Positions 14,803-26,539 are shown, numbered from the stretch's first letter. The stretch is DNA of 64,000 nt from an uncultured Gammaproteobacteria bacterium (GCA_964593745.1 CAZQHN010000002.1:66283-130282); one strand, 5' to 3'. The notes: a model not told the origin generated them from the letters alone. Translations and numbers: made by a program.

Positions 14803-15024
14803 TTAATGATAATCATTTTTAGAGTCTCTTATATTTTCTGCTTGTCGAATAGCTTCTTGGCCAGTAATAATTTTATTGTGGTAGGCTTGAAGAATTGACG
14901 CAAAGGCGCTAGCTTCATAATCATTAGCTCCTCTACGCATTACTTCATCCATAATACCATGGATAATCATTTCTGGGTCAAAATTATTTTCTTCAGCAGT
15001 TGGTTTGATCTTTTCTTTTTCCAT
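14803..15024 (-). CDS. Small hypothetical protein
   Basis: 73-aa ORF with protein-like composition. Confidence 0.7.
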   Translation of the reverse strand: MEKEKIKPTAEENNFDPEMIIHGIMDEVMRRGANDYEASAFASILQAYHNKIITGQEAIRQAENIRDSKNDYH

Positions 15025-18408: not shown

Positions 18409-18687
18409 ATGATTACTCAAGATCAAAAAAAGAAGCTTCATATTGGTTTTAAAAAAGCTTCTAGTTTGTTAGCAAAAATTAATGAGATGATAGAACAAGA
18501 TCATTATTGCATTGATGTGATGCAGCAAAATTTAGCAGTCATCGGGCTTCTAAGGTCAGCTCATGAGTTTTTAATGGAAAATCACCTTAGGACTTGTTTT
18601 AAATCAGCCATGGCTTCTAAAAATGAAAAGAAAAAACAGCAGATGATAGCTGAAATTTTAAAAGTTACTAATCTTTATAATAAATAA
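18409..18687 (+). CDS. csoR: CsoR/RcnR-family metal-sensing repressor
   Basis: MIEQDHYCIDVMQQ and ENHLRTCF supply the Cys-His-Cys ligand set. Confidence 0.9.
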   Translation: MITQDQKKKLHIGFKKASSLLAKINEMIEQDHYCIDVMQQNLAVIGLLRSAHEFLMENHLRTCFKSAMASKNEKKKQQMIAEILKVTNLYNK

Positions 18688-19314
18688 ATGAAAAAACAAA
18701 CTAATAGTTGTTGTTCAACTAAACGAACCAAAGAAAAACAAGGTATTTTATCTGGTATTTTGTTCGGCCTATTGCCTCATTCTTTTTGTCTAGCTTTTAT
18801 CTTGTTGTCTGTTTTTGGTGCAGTCACAGCCACGGCTTTTTTAAAGCAAATTTTAATTATTCCTAATTTTTTAACTTTTCTAATAGCTTTGTCATTAATT
18901 TTAGCGACAGTATCTTCAATAATTTATTTATATAAGAAAAATTGTTTATGCCTAAATGGTATTAAAGAAAAATGGAAATATTTATTAAGCGTTTATTCGG
19001 TTATAATGGTGGTTAATTTATTGATGTTTTTCGTTGTTTTTCCGGTCCTAGCTAATTTTAAAGGTGATAAAAATACAATAGCTTCTACTAGCACTTCTCA
19101 AGATAATTTATCCTCTTTAATAATTAAAACCCAAATACCTTGTTCAGGGCACGCTCCTTTAATTATTGATGAGATAAAGCAAAATAAAGGTATCGTCTCG
19201 GTTAATTTTTCTATGCCTAATGTTTTTAAAGTAGTTTATGATCCTCAAAGAATCACGCCGGAAAAAATTATTTCTTCCCAGGCCCTAAAAACCTATCAAG
19301 CTACTATTAATTAA
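18688..19314 (+). CDS. Membrane protein with C-terminal HMA-like domain
   Basis: N-terminal CC, three TM segments with PHSFC, CLC loop, C-terminal IPCSGH. Confidence 0.75.
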   Translation: MKKQTNSCCSTKRTKEKQGILSGILFGLLPHSFCLAFILLSVFGAVTATAFLKQILIIPNFLTFLIALSLILATVSSIIYLYKKNCLCLNGIKEKWKYLLSVYSVIMVVNLLMFFVVFPVLANFKGDKNTIASTSTSQDNLSSLIIKTQIPCSGHAPLIIDEIKQNKGIVSVNFSMPNVFKVVYDPQRITPEKIISSQALKTYQATIN

Positions 19315-19484: not shown

Positions 19485-19990
19485 CATATTTTTTATACGC
19501 CTGTAACTTAACTTTATTGTCTCAAACCAGAGTCTGATAATTGTTCAATCAAATTTTTACCTTCCATGGTAAAGGTTTGAGTTATACCATAGTTTCCTGT
19601 GTTATCAGGTGCTTCTGTGCAAATACCTGGTTTTAGTGTGTCACAGGAGTAATATGCAATATAAGGTTTTATTGATTCAAAGCCGGTTGCTTTGGTAAAT
19701 TCTTTTTTTATAAAAAAACTTACTTAAACCAAACTTGTTATTTTAAAAATAATACTGGTGTAATAAATAATTCTAATGTTACTAGTCTTAAAGGCATCTT
19801 ATCCAAAGGATATAGAGATAAATTTTTATCAAACTCAGATATATTCAATAGACGAGTAAAAGGTAAATTTATCATTTTAAAGACCTTTTTATATTTAATA
19901 TAATATAAAGAGGTTTTTTTGTTTAAATTTAAACAAAAACATCACCAATCTTAGGGATGTTTTTTCTTGGGCAAGCAATCGAGAAAGTTG

Positions 19991-20010
19991 CCTGCCTGCC
20001 GGTAGGCAGG
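19991..20010. repeat. 20-bp palindromic insertion CCTGCCTGCCGGTAGGCAGG
   Basis: Near-perfect palindrome; related element at 37807-37826. Confidence 0.75.
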
Positions 20011-20076
20011 GAAAACTTTTTTGATGGATTATTTGTCTATGTAATTCAAGGTAGGCTTGCAATGCTTTAACATAGT

Positions 20077-20713
20077 TTATTTGTCATCGAATAAGCTATG
20101 AAAAAACTGATCTACTTCTTTCCAATCTTTAACTCTCGTTACATTTTTTGGTAACTTATCTATTTTGTTCCACGTGTAATCTCCAAATAGCAATCCCTTT
20201 ATGCCCATCGACGCTGCTGATTGAACATGTTTTAGTTGATCATCAATCAAAAAATCCGCATTTATATTCTTGGCCAATTCTCCTTTAGTCATATTAATAC
20301 TTTCCTTGTTGTGTACGTCAAAAAATCCACTGAATATATAATCACTGAAAATTTCTGGATAATATTTATCTAACCATTCTTTTGTTAACTGATTAATTGA
20401 TTCCCGTCTTGTTGTTAGCACTACAAGTGAAAAATGTTGTTTTAATTTTTTTCAAAACATCCAAAGCGCCATCAATAATATCATAAGTGGCGATATGGCC
20501 CGATGCATGATATTCAATTGCCCGACGTTCGGTTTCTTCATATTCAGTTTTCCATATTTCTCCCCAGTGCTCCTGATAGTCGTCAATGGTTAAGTGTGTG
20601 CCGTATTTTTTATTGCTAAACTCCACAAAACCAGCAGCATTAGCTGCTATTACATCATCAATGTCAACTGCAACAATTGGTTTTTCAATATGTTTTTTAT
20701 TTGTGTCAGTCAT
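20077..20713 (-). pseudogene. NT5C-like HAD 5'-nucleotidase split by a +1 frameshift
   Basis: AVDIDDVIA in the 5' frame, LTTR...FLIDD in the 3' frame; removing one A from the A7 run (20446-20452) restores one ORF. Confidence 0.82.
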
Positions 20714-20894
20714 TTAAATATCTAAAGTTTGTGTTCCCTTTAGTGGTCACACATATTCTAACACAAAAACACCCATTTTACAGGTGTGTTTTTGACTTTC
20801 TACTAGGGGTCCAGGTTGGGGTTTGGTTATAAATATTATACAAAATGGGGCGGTAGTGGGAAAGATGGTTGAGAAAATTGCCAAAAAAGTGTAG

Positions 20895-21305
20895 TTATGG
20901 GGTATGTTCAGAACTATATAAATTTTTTAATACTAACATTATATCTTCCAGTTTCTCGTATTCAATAATATAATTAGATATCCCGATTGATGTGTTTTTT
21001 ATAGTAGTACCTTTTTTTATTAAAATTATTATTTTTTTATTTAGCGCATAAGCCATACCAGCTTCTATCGCCCTGCCGCCAGTTGGTATGTCACTCATAT
21101 CTATTAAAAGAATATCTGATTTTTCTATTTCTTTTTTTACTCTACTCATTAGTTCTTTGGGGTCAGTAAAGGTTTTTTGATAATGTTCCACATCTCTAAT
21201 AAAACAAAAATCTTCAAAGCCTGAATCTCGAACAAGCGAGCAAAGATGTTCTATTTCTTTTTTGTTTTTAGATTCTTTAAATGTGGCCGTGATAAATATG
21301 CGCAT
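20895..21305 (-). CDS. Nucleoside 2-deoxyribosyltransferase-like protein
   Basis: IEKSDILLIDMS...GGRAIEAGMAYALNKKII. Confidence 0.8.
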   Translation of the reverse strand: MRIFITATFKESKNKKEIEHLCSLVRDSGFEDFCFIRDVEHYQKTFTDPKELMSRVKKEIEKSDILLIDMSDIPTGGRAIEAGMAYALNKKIIILIKKGTTIKNTSIGISNYIIEYEKLEDIMLVLKNLYSSEHTP

Positions 21306-21332
21306 AAATTATTTTCGTGAGTCTTTGGTGGG

Positions 21333-22136
21333 TTATTTTTTAATTTCAAAGACGACTCTTAGCGATGGCGTTAGTGTGTCGCCCGGAAGGCGCAAAATTC
21401 GAAGTATACAATAAACTGGAAAATATAGTAAAAACAAAATTATTTTAAAACCTTTGCGTGTCCCGCCAAGATTTTTGAATATATCAGCGTAGCGTTCCTC
21501 AAAATATACTACGGTCTTTTGCTTAAATGATTTTAAGTGCGGAGATTTTTTAAATATTTTTCTTAGCGAATAAATGTTTAAGTATTGAGATGGTGGGAAG
21601 CTATACTTTCGGATCATTTTTGTAATTTTGCTGCGCCATTTATCGCTTAAAAGCCAATGAACTAATGGAAGATTATTGTCATGATAATCAAAAGGAAATA
21701 GAAAGTTTGGTGTTTCAATTAAAATATGGCCATTATTTTTGCAAACCCGGATTGCTTCATCAAGAAGTAGTTTCTTTCCTTTTTTAGATAAGACGTGCTC
21801 AAGAACTTGCCACAAAACGATAAAGTCAAAAACATTGTCATCAAAAGGAAGCTTATAGGGATCTTTTTGTAGAGCCATCTCCACGTTATTTATTTGATGT
21901 TTTTTCATTTTCTCCTTAGCTTTTTCTAGTTCTTCTAAAGAAATGTCGCAACCGGTTACTTTGCTATTCGGAACATGAGCCAGTGCAAATAAATTTCTTC
22001 CATAGCCACAGCCTATTTCTAATATTATTGGATCTTTAGTATTTATATATCTTTTTGCAATCGGCAAAAGCTCTTCCAAAGCAAGTTTGTCACCTTCATC
22101 TGATTTGTATAGTTCATTGATTTGGTTTATTTTCAT
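21333..22136 (-). CDS. Class I SAM-dependent methyltransferase
   Basis: ILEIGCGYG, GCDIS, LPFDDNVFDFIVLWQVLEHV. Confidence 0.92.
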   Translation of the reverse strand: MKINQINELYKSDEGDKLALEELLPIAKRYINTKDPIILEIGCGYGRNLFALAHVPNSKVTGCDISLEELEKAKEKMKKHQINNVEMALQKDPYKLPFDDNVFDFIVLWQVLEHVLSKKGKKLLLDEAIRVCKNNGHILIETPNFLFPFDYHDNNLPLVHWLLSDKWRSKITKMIRKYSFPPSQYLNIYSLRKIFKKSPHLKSFKQKTVVYFEERYADIFKNLGGTRKGFKIILFLLYFPVYCILRILRLPGDTLTPSLRVVFEIKK

Positions 22137-22292
22137 AGTATTTTTCTTTAATTAGATTATAGTTTAATTATTTTGATCACGGAAATCTGTTATTAGTTTG
22201 TTCTACCTGCAGATCGGGGTTTGGTTATAAATATTATAGAAAATAAAGTTTCAATTAATAATTTATTTAGTAAGATATTTTTTAATCAAAAA

Positions 22293-23132
22293 TTAACCAA
22301 TTATTTTTAATATATAGTTTCCTAGTAAAAAACTAGCAATATTCATAACTATACTCAGTAAAAGCAATTCTTTATATGCTATAGTCTTTTTCATTGTGAT
22401 AAAGATAAATATCGACTCCACTATTACTATAGTTATCTCTGCAATTGTCGTAAAAATATAATAATTAACATTTATATAGCTTGATGTTAACCATAATAAC
22501 GGTATGGTAATTAGATTTATTAAAAAGATCCAGAGAATAATAATGTTTAAACTGTTGTTGGATGTACTATCGCTATAACTCTTTGTTTTTTTGATTAATA
22601 AATAAATAATTACTATAAGCAGTTCAATGATTATTGTTATTATTAATGACAGGGCAAAGATTGATAGTTTGCTATCGAAAATTGACCCCACTGTTACGCC
22701 CTGTTGCTCGCCGTTATCTAAAGACTCTTCATCATAATGAAAGTTTGCTGTTTTTTCTATTAGGAGACTATTTTTAGAAACCGTGACATTAAAATAAGAA
22801 TCCATCGTCCTTCCAGTGCTAAAAGTATTACTATATAGCATTTTTTTAGAAACCATTGCTCCGACTTGTAAGTAGTTAGTATATCCGTAAGACATTGAGT
22901 AGCAAGATAGTTTTGATCCATACTGACAGGAAATAGTTTGCGGCCCGAAACTTTCCATCTCTTTTTTATTTGTGCAGGCTTGATCAGTACATTCAAATAA
23001 TTTAACAGCCGATATGTTTGATGTTTTCCCTAAGAATTTTAAACTTATGCTTGGTTTAGGTCCAAGATCAGCTAAGGTTATCATTGGTAAAGTCAATAAG
23101 ATTAATGCACTTATTATAAATATTTTTTTCAT
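22293..23132 (-). CDS. Hypothetical protein: signal peptide, Cys-containing extracellular domain, 4-TM C-terminus
   Basis: ADLGPKPS after the signal peptide; TIIIE, INLITIP, AE..., MNIASF membrane motifs. Confidence 0.8.
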   Translation of the reverse strand: MKKIFIISALILLTLPMITLADLGPKPSISLKFLGKTSNISAVKLFECTDQACTNKKEMESFGPQTISCQYGSKLSCYSMSYGYTNYLQVGAMVSKKMLYSNTFSTGRTMDSYFNVTVSKNSLLIEKTANFHYDEESLDNGEQQGVTVGSIFDSKLSIFALSLIITIIIELLIVIIYLLIKKTKSYSDSTSNNSLNIIILWIFLINLITIPLLWLTSSYINVNYYIFTTIAEITIVIVESIFIFITMKKTIAYKELLLLSIVMNIASFLLGNYILKIIG

Positions 23133-23301
23133 ATGTTTTTATACTTATAATTAAATTATATCACCAAACAAAAATAACCCCAATTTGAGGTTATTTTTAT
23201 TAATGGGTCGAGGTTGGGATTTGGTTATAAATTTAGTAACAAATAGAATTCTTATTGGAAGCTTGATTGATAAAATCAAACCTTGAAAATACTTAAGATG
23301 G

Positions 23302-23439
23302 CTAATTAATTTCAAGGTTTTTGGAGTATGGCAAACTTTTTATATATGCTTCTATAAAATCCCAATTAATCTTCCTGTTTTTAAATGGTAGTTTAATTTT
23401 TGTTTCCTTTATTCTGTCTTGATTAAATTTTCTTCCATA
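23302..23439 (-). pseudogene. C-terminal fragment resembling a restriction-modification specificity (S) subunit
   Basis: YGRKFNQDRIKETKIKLPFKNRKINWDFIEAYIKSLPYSKNLEIN*. Confidence 0.6.
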
Positions 23440-23691
23440 TTAATTAATAAAATTATTAAGCAATAGACCGCCTACTATAAAGCTAGTGGCATTCATTGCT
23501 AAGCTCAGTAGCAAGAGCTTTTTCCAGTCTTCTTTTTGTTGGCTAAACCATAATATAAAATAAAATTCAAATATTACTGCAAATATTTCTGACAGTATTA
23601 ATATAGTTGGATAAGGCAGGGTAATTAGAGGTAATATAAACCAGACAATCGGTATAGAAATTATGTTTACTAAAATAACATAGATAAGTAT
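23440..23691 (-). pseudogene. 3' fragment of a paralog of the 22293..23132 membrane protein
   Basis: ILIYVILVNIISIPIVWF...SEIFAVIFE...KKLLLLSLAMNATSFIVG aligns with ILWIFLINLITIPLLW...AEITIVIVE...KELLLLSIVMNIASFLLG. Confidence 0.8.
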
Positions 23692-23968
23692 ATTTTTTTT
23701 CCATATTCAATGAATAATATTTAATCTTTTTTAATTCATCAAACATTGGCTTGTCTTTTAACACAATGACAAAATCAAGATCAGATATATTTTTTTTAAA
23801 ATTACCAGCAGCCACGCTACCTCTTATATAAATACTAAAAATGTTATTACCAAATTCTTTTTTACAAAAAAATAAAACCTCATTCAGAACTAATATAAGT
23901 TTTTTACCAATTTTATTTTTATTACCACTATTGACGAGGAAACCTCTTTTATCAGTGGATATAATCAT
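23692..23968 (-). pseudogene. 5' half of a Pol-beta-family nucleotidyltransferase
   Basis: SIYIRGSVAAG...ISDLDFVIV; the tail of track ORF 23567..23968 is an out-of-frame read of the next fragment. Confidence 0.75.
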
Positions 23969-23973
23969 ATAGA

Positions 23974-24615
23974 CTATTGAATAAATTTTAATTTATTGCC
24001 ATCAATAATAATTACTTCCCCGTCTCTTAGCGGTTTATATGAAATATTATTGTCTTTAAAAAATTGTTGCACTTGATTAACTTTGTCCGATTCAGGGTGA
24101 TTTGATTCAAAATGGGGAAGTATGGAAAAATCAACTAACCCCATGCCATTCCATAAAATTTCTTTATCATAATCTTCAGGTACAATATTTGGATCATCTA
24201 CAAAGTCTATTCCCTTCAATGTTGGCGTAGCTACAATACTCCCTGCGCTGTAGCCTCCGTAAACGAGTGAGTCATTAGCCAAAAATTCACGAATAATTTT
24301 ATCAAAGCCACTTTGATGCATGGCGCGCAGAAGAACAAAGGCATTTCCCCCTCTAACCCAAACTAAACCAGCTTTTGATAGGGTTTCTCTGAGTCCATCT
24401 GCTTTATTAAAATATAACCGTAAGTCAAGCTCTTCTGCATTAAGACCAAGTTCGTTAAATAAAACTATATTTTGGTTAATTCGTTCTTTAGTTGAATCTC
24501 TTGGAAAAAGATCTTGAGCGTTATTTACTATTAAAACCTTCTTATTACTATTCATTAATGACACTAGCTCTTCTGGTTTATTTCCCAGGCCATATGATGA
24601 AAGATAGAGTTTCAT
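23974..24615 (-). CDS. Peptidase E / S51-family protein
   Basis: WVRGGNAF, YGGYSAGS, ILPH. Confidence 0.9.
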   Translation of the reverse strand: MKLYLSSYGLGNKPEELVSLMNSNKKVLIVNNAQDLFPRDSTKERINQNIVLFNELGLNAEELDLRLYFNKADGLRETLSKAGLVWVRGGNAFVLLRAMHQSGFDKIIREFLANDSLVYGGYSAGSIVATPTLKGIDFVDDPNIVPEDYDKEILWNGMGLVDFSILPHFESNHPESDKVNQVQQFFKDNNISYKPLRDGEVIIIDGNKLKFIQ

Positions 24616-24729
24616 ATAAAATAATAAATTATATTTGAATTATATCACCAAACAAAAATAACCCCAATATTAGGGTTATTTTTTGGTGGGGTGAGTTATG
24701 TGATATGTTCAGGACTTTAAGAATAGAAA

Positions 24730-25197
24730 TTAGCGATTTTGGTCAACTAATCCACCAATATATTTAGCTTGATAGACAATTTCATTATTAGATTTAATAA
24801 TTTCTGTGCCATAAAAATTATCTACCTCGCCTTCATAAGAGTTATTATATTCCAAATTATTTTCAGTATATTTTTCTGGTCCACGATAAGGTTTATTTTC
24901 CGGGATTTGTTTTAAGGCATTTTGTAATACTTCGTAAACCTCACCAAAGTTATTATCTTTTTTAACTTGTCCATAATAAACCATTATATAAACGGGTTTA
25001 TTTTGATAAAAAACTACTTCGCGGCCGCCATACGGTTCGCCTCCAAAATAATTATCATGATATTTCCAATCACCCTCTTCAAAATACAAAGAAGTTGAAT
25101 TATCTTTTTCTTTTATTTGTTGAGCTTCGTCGCCTGAAGCGTACGTCGCTTTTTTAGCTTTGGCTAGAAATTTACAAAGCTCGGTTAGATTTATCAT
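24730..25197 (-). CDS. DUF5680-like protein
   Basis: FLAKAKKATYA, YHDNYFGGEPYGGREVV, PYRGP, Y.GG. Confidence 0.78.
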   Translation of the reverse strand: MINLTELCKFLAKAKKATYASGDEAQQIKEKDNSTSLYFEEGDWKYHDNYFGGEPYGGREVVFYQNKPVYIMVYYGQVKKDNNFGEVYEVLQNALKQIPENKPYRGPEKYTENNLEYNNSYEGEVDNFYGTEIIKSNNEIVYQAKYIGGLVDQNR

Positions 25198-25200
25198 AAG

Positions 25201-25274
25201 TGGGTGCCTACTGGGAGTTGAACCCAGACTAACGGGACCACAACCCGCTGTTCTACCGCTAAACTATAGGCACC
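25201..25274 (-). tRNA. tRNA-His(GTG)
   Basis: G-1, acceptor GTGCCTA/TAGGCAC, discriminator C, anticodon loop TTGTGGT, T arm CTGGG-TTCAACT-CCCAG. Confidence 0.95.
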
Positions 25275-25281
25275 ATATTAA

Positions 25282-25367
25282 TAGCAAGTGACAAGTTACA
25301 AGTAACAAGTAGCAAGCGCTGACTAAATTATTTTAATCAAAACTTGCTACTTGTTACTTTTTACTTG
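25282..25367. repeat. Inverted heptamer tandem-repeat element
   Basis: (AGCAAGT/GACAAGT/TACAAGT/AACAAGT)n ... (ACTTGCT/ACTTGTT)n; similar elements at 30080-30140 and 56074-56135. Confidence 0.7.
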
Positions 25368-25379
25368 GGACTGTGCTTG

Positions 25380-25624: not shown

Positions 25625-26539
25625 TCATTTTTTGCGTCGTTTACCATGAAAAGCTTGATAAACATCGCGTAATTGTTGGTCAGTAATATGAGTATAAACT
25701 TGCGTTGTCGTAATTGAAGCATGACCCAGCATAGCTTGCACACTTCTAATATCGGCGCCGTTCATCAGTAGATCAGTCGCATAGCTATGGCGAAGAGTAT
25801 GAGGCGTTACCTTTTTCATAATACCAGCCAGTCGTGCATAACGCGAAACTAATCTTTCAATTGAACGTGGGGTAATAGGAAATAAAAGCGACTCTGGATC
25901 AGTGCGTAGAGCTAAGTACTTTTTTATCCAGTGGCGAGCTGTGTCTGATAAGAAAACTAAACGCACTTTACTGCCTTTACCACGCACGGTAAATTCTTCC
26001 TTATTTAAATTAATTTCTTCAACTTTTAATTTAGCTAATTCACTAACACGTAAACCAGTAGAAAATAAAGTTTCTAGAAGTGCTTTATCTCGTAATTGTT
26101 GCAATTGACCTTTGGTGTGTTGTAAGGGCATTTCTAAGATACGTTCTAAATCATGGCCTTCTAGAAAATCAACTTGTCTGGGTGCTTGTTTAGCTAGTTC
26201 TATTTTTTCCGGCTCTAGAGTTTTAATATCATTTTTAATTAAATACTTTAAAAAAGTACGTAGAGCAATTAAATGATAATTTTGGGTATTCTTTTTTATA
26301 TTATCGGCCGTGCGCGCTGGTAAGCGATTAAGATGCAGGCGCCATTGATGAACTAAAATTTTAGTAATATTTTCGGGCTTGGTAACGCCGCGCTCTTTAC
26401 TAAATAGCGCAAAGCGTTTTAAGAAAAAATTATAATTTCTTAAAGTTAAGGTTGATAAGCCACGATCAACTTCTAAATACTCAAGAAAATCAATGATAGC
26501 TTGGTCTAATGGTGTTTTTTTAAAATGAGTTTTAGCCAT
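25625..26539 (-). CDS. XerC/XerD-family tyrosine recombinase
   Basis: STGLRVSEL, RGKGSK, HTLRHSYAT, LGHASITTTQVYTH. Confidence 0.95.
   Translation of the reverse strand: MAKTHFKKTPLDQAIIDFLEYLEVDRGLSTLTLRNYNFFLKRFALFSKERGVTKPENITKILVHQWRLHLNRLPARTADNIKKNTQNYHLIALRTFLKYLIKNDIKTLEPEKIELAKQAPRQVDFLEGHDLERILEMPLQHTKGQLQQLRDKALLETLFSTGLRVSELAKLKVEEINLNKEEFTVRGKGSKVRLVFLSDTARHWIKKYLALRTDPESLLFPITPRSIERLVSRYARLAGIMKKVTPHTLRHSYATDLLMNGADIRSVQAMLGHASITTTQVYTHITDQQLRDVYQAFHGKRRKK

Follow-up and report, generated by a model that had tools for sequence, protein, structure and literature searches.

What builds a row of short gene units behind a single tRNA gene, with repeated junctions between them that encode related peptide tails, when no recombinase lies among them? 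The question is raised by positions 19930 to 25200 of a 64,000-nt stretch of DNA (here called the window), where such an array follows a tRNA-His gene. The window belongs to a genome of 1.04 Mb in 46 contigs, whose host probably belongs to Patescibacteria, since homologous large serine recombinases (LSRs) carry Patescibacteria names from their sources. An initial annotation of the locus proposed an integron-like accretion system in which each unit would consist of an attachment core, a swappable C-terminal tail of an absent recombinase, and a cargo gene with its own promoter. The observations behind that proposal are largely confirmed, and its interpretation is partly supported. The array is best explained, with a probability of about 0.7 judged from sequence comparison, as a stack of LSR insertions at tRNA-His, in which older insertions would have been pushed outward, their recombinases deleted, and 0.5-1.5 kb of cargo kept.

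Junctions and recombinases at the tRNA-His end

The most conspicuous element of the array is the 17-mer GGG(G/A)TTTGGTTATAAAT, present in exact copies at 20818, 22216 and 23216, each with a plus-strand frame as described initially. There is no fourth match at two or fewer mismatches in the window or in the whole genome, and shuffled windows contained a mean of 0.06 matches, with three reached in 0 of 100 shuffles. The junctions do not form the single family of five first proposed. They fall into three families, A (three junctions), B (two) and D (one), and the sixth, a decayed junction, had been overlooked. Read in the sense of the tRNA, they share one order: the arm comes first, then a short core, a hairpin and, in many cases, a TGATATAAT box, with the genes last. 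The tRNA-His(GTG) gene lies at 25202..25273 on the minus strand, and the point of insertion is its 3' end (ACCCA, 25205-25201), where the LSRs of relatives enter. The window cores measure 4-5 nt and are in register with this end, so that the likeness to it noticed at 23203-23222 holds; they are located at 23205, 20807 and 22205 (the last one lost) in family A, at 24688 in family B, and at 19969 in family D, and two junctions have no core. The proposed attachment cores can be retained as attachment-site arms with a short core that matches the tRNA-His 3' end.

All arms are read on the plus strand. Closest to the tRNA is a type-B arm (24684..24767, core at about 24688-24692) with the tail WWGELCDMFRTL..., followed outward by the type-A arm A1 (23203..23286, core 23205-23208), with the tail MGRGWDLVIN..., and by A2 (22216..22310), which has lost both its ACCC core and its hairpin. 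The decayed type-B arm (20889..20923) is separated from the next core by about 80 bp, which correspond to arm A3 (20805..20894, core 20807-20810). The latter carries the tail GPGWGLVINIIQNGAVVGKMVEKIAKKV and has 84-88% identical counterparts in the relatives G003, G007 and G008. The outermost junction is the type-D arm (19968..20060), with a GCCC core and a GC-rich palindrome, found also between other genes in the tRNA-His array of G007. The peptide WASNRESWKTF, originally read here by removing a 20-bp insert, finds no support, as the arm of G007 keeps a palindrome of about equal length in place and reads RASNQESYLSVFDGENYFDGLF.

The connection of these arms with serine recombinases comes from relatives in which the element is still present. 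In G139, a 504-aa LSR enters tRNA-His, and the far arm of the element, 9.4 kb on, is identical to the window junction at 24688 in 24 of 25 nt and has the tail WGELCDVFRTIDW. The element of G499 also has its LSR at tRNA-His, and its distal arm, 12.7 kb on, carries TTTATAACCAA at positions -22 to -17 from the core, the motif and register of the window A arms, A1 included; the mirror motif TTATAAATT is found in its tRNA-proximal arm. A second, unrelated LSR of G499 runs into that distal arm and ends in an A-type tail (C-terminus WGPIQTLVIN), and an intact LSR tail of the B-like NDFRTLDW type is present at L084. The 542-aa LSR of G014 faces tRNA-His and represents a clade that targets this gene: 7 of its 10 best genomic loci enter tRNA-His in the frame W-G-G, in which the window tails are also read. 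Of the 25 distinct places with an LSR in the whole family, 11 have a gene that continues into the antisense of a tRNA 3' end. LSRs of different clades are only 24-29% identical, so at least three LSR clades share the tRNA-His site. The A and B junctions correspond to the distal arms (putative attR sites) of LSR elements at tRNA-His. Regarding the supposed tails of an absent recombinase, the LSR frame and the G499 protein speak for the tails, and the notion of one recombinase gives way to several unrelated LSR clades, together with tyrosine integrases in relatives. The absence itself stands, as no LSR remnant was found in the window and no cognate recombinase in the host genome.

A mechanism can be proposed on this basis. 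In the relatives, the LSR gene runs towards the tRNA, and its final codons extend over the tRNA 3' end, which would place attP within the 3' end of the recombinase gene. Crossover in or beside the ACCC core would fuse the gene to the tRNA antisense at attL and strand its true C-terminal tail at attR, which would then stand before whatever earlier lay behind the tRNA. The process would be repeated by later arrivals, which stem from at least three LSR clades and, in some relatives, from tyrosine integrases. Deletions, for which there is partial evidence, would take the recombinase and the replication module and leave remnants such as unit 2 or the empty unit at 20811-20888, which is an arm alone. 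Finally, cargo blocks could be carried further mainly by riding along with an incoming LSR element, should this excise at an arm of its own type farther out, and through recombination between the repeated hairpin-promoter modules.

Turnover of cargo at the junctions

The order of the xer, tRNA-Arg and tRNA-His genes is conserved within the genus, and the content behind tRNA-His differs in nearly every genome. Position matrices applied to 16 tRNA-His loci, the window included (short, tRNA-less and out-of-genus stretches among 20 being left out), gave 50 arm matches of types A, B and C, all 50 co-oriented with the tRNA; 29 of these 50 had themselves seeded the matrices. The median length of the 53 units delimited in relatives and window is 955 bp. 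Their cargo is mostly private, since 14 families among the 101 open reading frames (ORFs) inside arrays recur in a second genome, and it is oriented both ways, with 59 frames in sense and 42 in antisense. Several states of the locus can be recognized: G014 has a complete element, unit 1 of G007 has both arms and no LSR, and G325, which belongs to another family and shows the same unit architecture, has an LSR element with two cassette-like units behind it. These look like stages of one process. Not all insertions follow the same path, as a tyrosine integrase faces tRNA-His in G004 and G010, and long repeats of a tRNA half replace the short cores in G010 and G013.

The claim that junctions coincide with gene gain and loss is borne out by two comparisons. 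Unit 3 of the window (22216-23208) aligns from junction to junction with the locus L059, at 70% identity over 1006 nt, and is third in the window and first behind tRNA-His in L059. Since L059 belongs to another species (xer 77%), the alignment demonstrates that units are added or lost at junctions, and is not proof of independent transfer. The second case is that of G004 and G011, where flanks of 92-93% identity enclose junction modules in common and no cargo in the assembled parts, the G004 array being split over two contigs. Between species, cargo turns over at the junctions.

Comparison of 8 of the 20 public runs that contain the sequence (contigs only; X1 and X2 may be its source) yielded no credible junction-to-junction joints, circles or rearrangements, so that the excised circles proposed initially as a check were not seen, and the same strain was recovered in several studies with the array sequence unchanged. 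The joints listed occur in single contigs, where their sides measure 20-31 nt, and were not accepted; one of them, from 24683 to 25256 (side 21, X8), falls near a junction and probably comes from another organism. Runs X4 and X5 contain a more abundant relative with 7 differences in 411 nt around the tRNAs, and their assembly graph branches at 25200, the tRNA end. This branch is no more than suggestive, since its free end could not be assigned to that relative.

A further feature that bears on the order of the units is an exact 31-nt direct repeat (23154-23184 and 24638-24668), which precedes unrelated genes and flanks unit 2. It breaks contigs in all four runs compared, and the order of units 1-3 depends on resolving it. 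The repeat could also provide a route for the recombinational loss of unit 2.

Peptide tails, hairpins and competing explanations

The tail reading holds for the A and B arms, and not for every arm. In 11 A arms, codon structure is kept in the distal codons 11-25, with position 2 the least variable, and none of 2000 column shuffles reached the observed similarity. The distal frame is open in 11 of 11 of these arms (p 0.006), which are related to one another. A profile of the A tail found 12 places in 301 genomes of the order, all of them open frames of 32-54 aa, two of which look like chance, and profiles of A and B tails had no match among 121 LSRs. The A pattern matched eight times in a metagenome collection, at two tRNA-His junctions (L059 and L062) and six times by chance in genes or unrelated DNA. 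Its seven matches in a genome collection comprise two records of G003 and G008 and five unrelated sequences. Among viral contigs three patterns had no matches and LSR relatives were at most 30% identical, so that a phage carrier was not identified.

Hairpins accompany most junctions, as the initial annotation had noticed: A/T-flanked structures of -12.6 to -20.7 kcal/mol fold on the tRNA-distal side of four of five junctions, and the junction at 22216 reaches only -3.5 kcal/mol. The terminator-like hairpins are on the minus strand, at 24638..24683 and 23154..23200, each with a TGATATAAT box and a putative promoter, and at 20764..20794 and 19931..19966. They belong to families that lie directly behind tRNA-His in relatives; the first is the same hairpin as in G005, and the family of the last occurs in G001 and G008. 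A promoter scan gave 44 hits compared with 31.7 +/- 5.8 in shuffles, a small excess, and the promoters are to be regarded as predicted. In seven of the 53 units, no more than 1-7 nt separate the cargo ATG from the tRNA-His end or from a core, which leaves no space for a promoter or a ribosome-binding site (window 25197-25205; L031 in G015, L033 in G016, L043 in G002, L032 and L036). These genes may produce leaderless messages read from the tRNA precursor.

A number of results weigh against the stack of LSR insertions. Some concern the tails: pN/pS in the distal A arms is 0.76-0.92, so that present purifying selection is not shown; the C arms of relatives have no conserved peptide past the first 9 or so codons; no full-length LSR with a complete A tail turned up, and 1.84 billion representatives (one per 50% cluster) yielded only two short ORFs to a profile search; and a profile built on 20 intact LSR C-termini failed to recognize the window tails in the six frames of the host genome. 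Nor are all arms coding, as the LSR of G014 (L036, 1335-2963) ends before the site with a complete C-terminus and a hairpin in between. No element ending in a D arm was found, and family D has no assigned recombinase. Other results concern the regularity of the units, most of which open with a hairpin just behind the core and not with an element-derived arm. A hairpin of at most -7 kcal/mol lies behind 55 of 69 cores, tRNA ends included, for which random deletion gives no reason. The 9-mer TAGTGGGA is mirror-placed about the core, at -43 in A arms and at +44 to +54 behind hairpins, and 12 of its 15 copies in the 275 kb scanned are near cores, which simple decay does not account for either. This 9-mer may serve as an accessory binding site, or else mark where another tail family (LPLL...) begins. 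Copies 44-54 nt behind cores are found at L032, L035, L036, L037, L038 and L059, and a window copy lies at about 20850.

These regularities are the strength of a different explanation, in which each unit is a complete non-autonomous element, moved singly by a visiting LSR through relaxed site pairing, in the manner of a small integron cassette. The small size of the units, the hairpin usually just behind the core, the mirror-placed 9-mer and the same architecture in the other family (G325) are all consistent with it, as are the different rank of unit 3 in L059 and in the window and the end of its homology at the junctions. The family at the start of a unit is also associated with the arm at its end across genomes (p 0.003), an association that disappears within genomes (p 0.20 and 0.23, the second matched-ends statistic having been picked after the table was seen). 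The circle formed by such a unit would, moreover, bear an attR-like site, and canonical serine integrases are not known to insert attR-like sites. Unit 3 may simply be inherited in both species, given that the unit is 70% and xer 77% identical; the window contains fragment mosaics and lost cores; and the contigs of the eight runs revealed neither credible joints nor circles. Together with unmatched unit ends and the mixed orientation of the cargo, this speaks against the system of clean mobile cassettes first envisaged, and singly moving units seem rather unlikely. A bolder version can be formulated as gene capture with a recombinase on loan, where cassettes of about 1 kb, bounded by a terminator-promoter module and, at the opposite end, by a detached LSR tail arm, would be moved singly at tRNA-His by passing LSRs that pair sites in a non-canonical way, and a truncated resident LSR would regain a C-terminal helix with each unit that lands before it, as in G499, so that growth of the array regulates the recombinase. 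The frequent hairpins, the 31-nt module repeat and the mirrored TAGTGGGA keep the cassette reading under consideration, and this version of it is likewise doubtful.

If the repeats were DNA signals only, that is, displaced tRNA ends, terminators, promoters and arms of tyrosine integrases, their peptides would be accidental. The tyrosine integrases at the same tRNA in G004 and G010, the tRNA-half cores of G010 and G013, the unconserved C arms and a pN/pS near 1 point in this direction. However, the window cores are short and are not tRNA halves, LSR genes enter the same arms in the same frame, and codon structure persists past the binding region, which makes this explanation improbable. Least credible of all is that the neighbouring Xer-like tyrosine recombinase (25625..26539, minus strand), whose gene is 350 bp from tRNA-His, serves as the integrase of an integron whose sites are of a new kind. 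It has relatives in 38 of 41 genomes, mostly one close orthologue with conserved synteny across the genus, and reaches 233 bits on the XerC/D model, compared with 126 bits on the integron integrase model (cut-off 265 bits). No attC-type RYYYAAC..GTTRRRY pairs exist within 200 nt of any of the five junctions, which agrees with the lack of attC sites stated from the outset, and the arms map to LSR elements. This candidate is largely refuted, and was rejected as a housekeeping XerC/D-like protein outside the array. The stack of LSR insertions with deleted recombinases is preferred over all of these.

Cargo, known islands and neighbouring features

The genes of the array are all on the minus strand, and not all units consist of a single gene with a promoter of its own, as first proposed. 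Unit 1 encodes a DUF5680 protein of 155 aa (24730..25197), whose ATG is 4 nt behind the tRNA end, with neither terminator nor promoter in between; homologues in genus g4 are part of ordinary operons with no junctions nearby. Unit 2 contains a peptidase S51 of 213 aa (23974..24615), the 5' part of a truncated nucleotidyltransferase gene (23567..23968), the start-less 3' end of a membrane-protein gene (23443..23706, 88 aa, 36% identical to the unit-3 gene, E 2e-11), and, adjoining arm A1, the last 45 codons (23305..23439) of a restriction-modification gene for an N6-methyltransferase/specificity protein of about 800 aa. This remnant has 82 matches at 61-82% identity, and in 77 of the 82 the motif lies within the last 70 aa. 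The end of such a gene directly before an A arm indicates that A1 once closed a larger element. As a mosaic with fragments of three genes, unit 2 is a deletion remnant. Unit 3, the one that occupies first place as a whole in L059, encodes a membrane protein of 279 aa with no Pfam family (22293..23132). Unit 4, which has no hairpin, holds a class I S-adenosylmethionine (SAM) methyltransferase of 267 aa (21333..22136) and a nucleoside 2-deoxyribosyltransferase-like protein of 136 aa (20895..21305), just below the Pfam cut-off. In unit 5, an NT5C-type 5'-nucleotidase gene is frameshifted into two overlapping frames (20077..20713), and an identical copy exists in contigs from another study.

Accretion in tandem with recombinase-less remnants has already been published for other bacteria. 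The Dehalococcoides ssrA islands (PMC3146451) lie in tandem behind one RNA gene and use the serine recombinase DsiB, of about 540 aa, which is encoded on the reverse strand with its 3' end overlapping attL and takes its stop codon from the neighbouring DNA. There, 15 islands have no integration module and the authors invoke accretion. One trait of those islands recurs in G139, G499 and other relatives of the host studied here. The differences are in the target, which is a 20-bp repeat in the tmRNA T-loop there and the extreme tRNA-His 3' end with a core of about 4-5 nt here, in the unit size of about 1 kb, and in the several unrelated LSR clades and tyrosine integrases that share the site. A six-gene module of the DsiA type was not seen here, although no search was aimed at it. 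A comparable succession of integration, decay to a recombinase-less element and arrival of a newcomer at the same site is outlined for ICESt1-related cis-mobilizable and integrative mobilizable elements (CIMEs and IMEs; PMC5704250). Chimeric internal sites, as in G499, and units without integrase or transfer genes, as in the window, are common to both. CIMEs keep attL and attR, whereas window units retain the distal arm alone, lack a TTTATAA-bearing proximal arm like that of G014, G007 and G499, and open with a terminator or directly with a gene; the definition fits only unit 1 of G007. The tRNA islands of Prochlorococcus tycheposons (bioRxiv 10.1101/2020.12.28.424599) also grow by successive insertion, with older elements pushed away, remnants marking old events and often no intact element. 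Their recombinases are described there as mostly tyrosine recombinases with partial-tRNA repeats of about 40 nt, in contrast to the recombinase-gene tails and 4-5-nt cores found here.

Integrons are defined by IntI, attI and attC. The array resembles them in its one-sided growth, its row of small accessory genes and its co-oriented junctions, and differs from them in the lack of IntI, of attC pairs and of a resident dedicated recombinase, as well as in the mixed cargo orientation among relatives. Large serine recombinases (Ccr) also stack the composite islands of the staphylococcal cassette chromosome (SCC) at one gene end. Here, the LSRs of G014 and G139 score 159 and 72 bits on the NCBIfam CcrB model, far below its cut-off of 900 bits, insertion is directed to a tRNA, and there is overlap between the site and the recombinase gene. 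The array resembles accretion of the CIME and ssrA-island kind in miniature, and falls outside both integrons and strict CIMEs. A literature search of listings and abstract beginnings, with subscription papers mostly outside its reach, returned no description of such an array in Patescibacteria. In an ultra-small reduced genome, the end of tRNA-His would act as a common landing pad for several unrelated recombinases, where accessory genes come and go and where scars make the insertion history readable even after all mobile genes are gone. For integrase discovery, the locus pairs two uncharacterised LSRs (G139 and G499) with candidate attachment arms and a tRNA target, and it provides natural cases of C-terminal tail swapping.

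Besides the array, several features of the locus and of the genomes deserve mention. The host genome encodes two LSRs. The first, of 509 aa, enters tRNA-Gln(TTG) on contig C3 (G000:C3:63732-65272; L095, L103) and has replication-like genes behind it; its distal end was not found. The second, of about 440 aa, lies on C1 without a tRNA (G000:C1:302865-304127; L083) and belongs to a class seen in this situation in several members of the genus. Within the G014 clade, both gene-site layouts occur, with the LSR running into the tRNA or stopping short of it. In G017, an A-type arm with a hairpin (L274; C1, about 14860-14931) is found some 700 bp behind tRNA-Glu(CTC), not behind tRNA-His. Past the last junction of the window, at 18409-19314 and facing the array, are the genes for a PF02583 metal-sensing repressor and for a membrane protein whose C-terminal part contains Cys. 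Extra tRNAs are present on host contigs C1, C5, C9 and C14 (two Trp-CCA, a second Gln-TTG, and copies of Leu and Met); some of them are on small contigs, and they possibly reflect mobile DNA or contamination of the bin. Lastly, AAGTnAC(A)-type units form a 41-nt inverted repeat between tRNA-His and tRNA-Arg, at 25287-25372.

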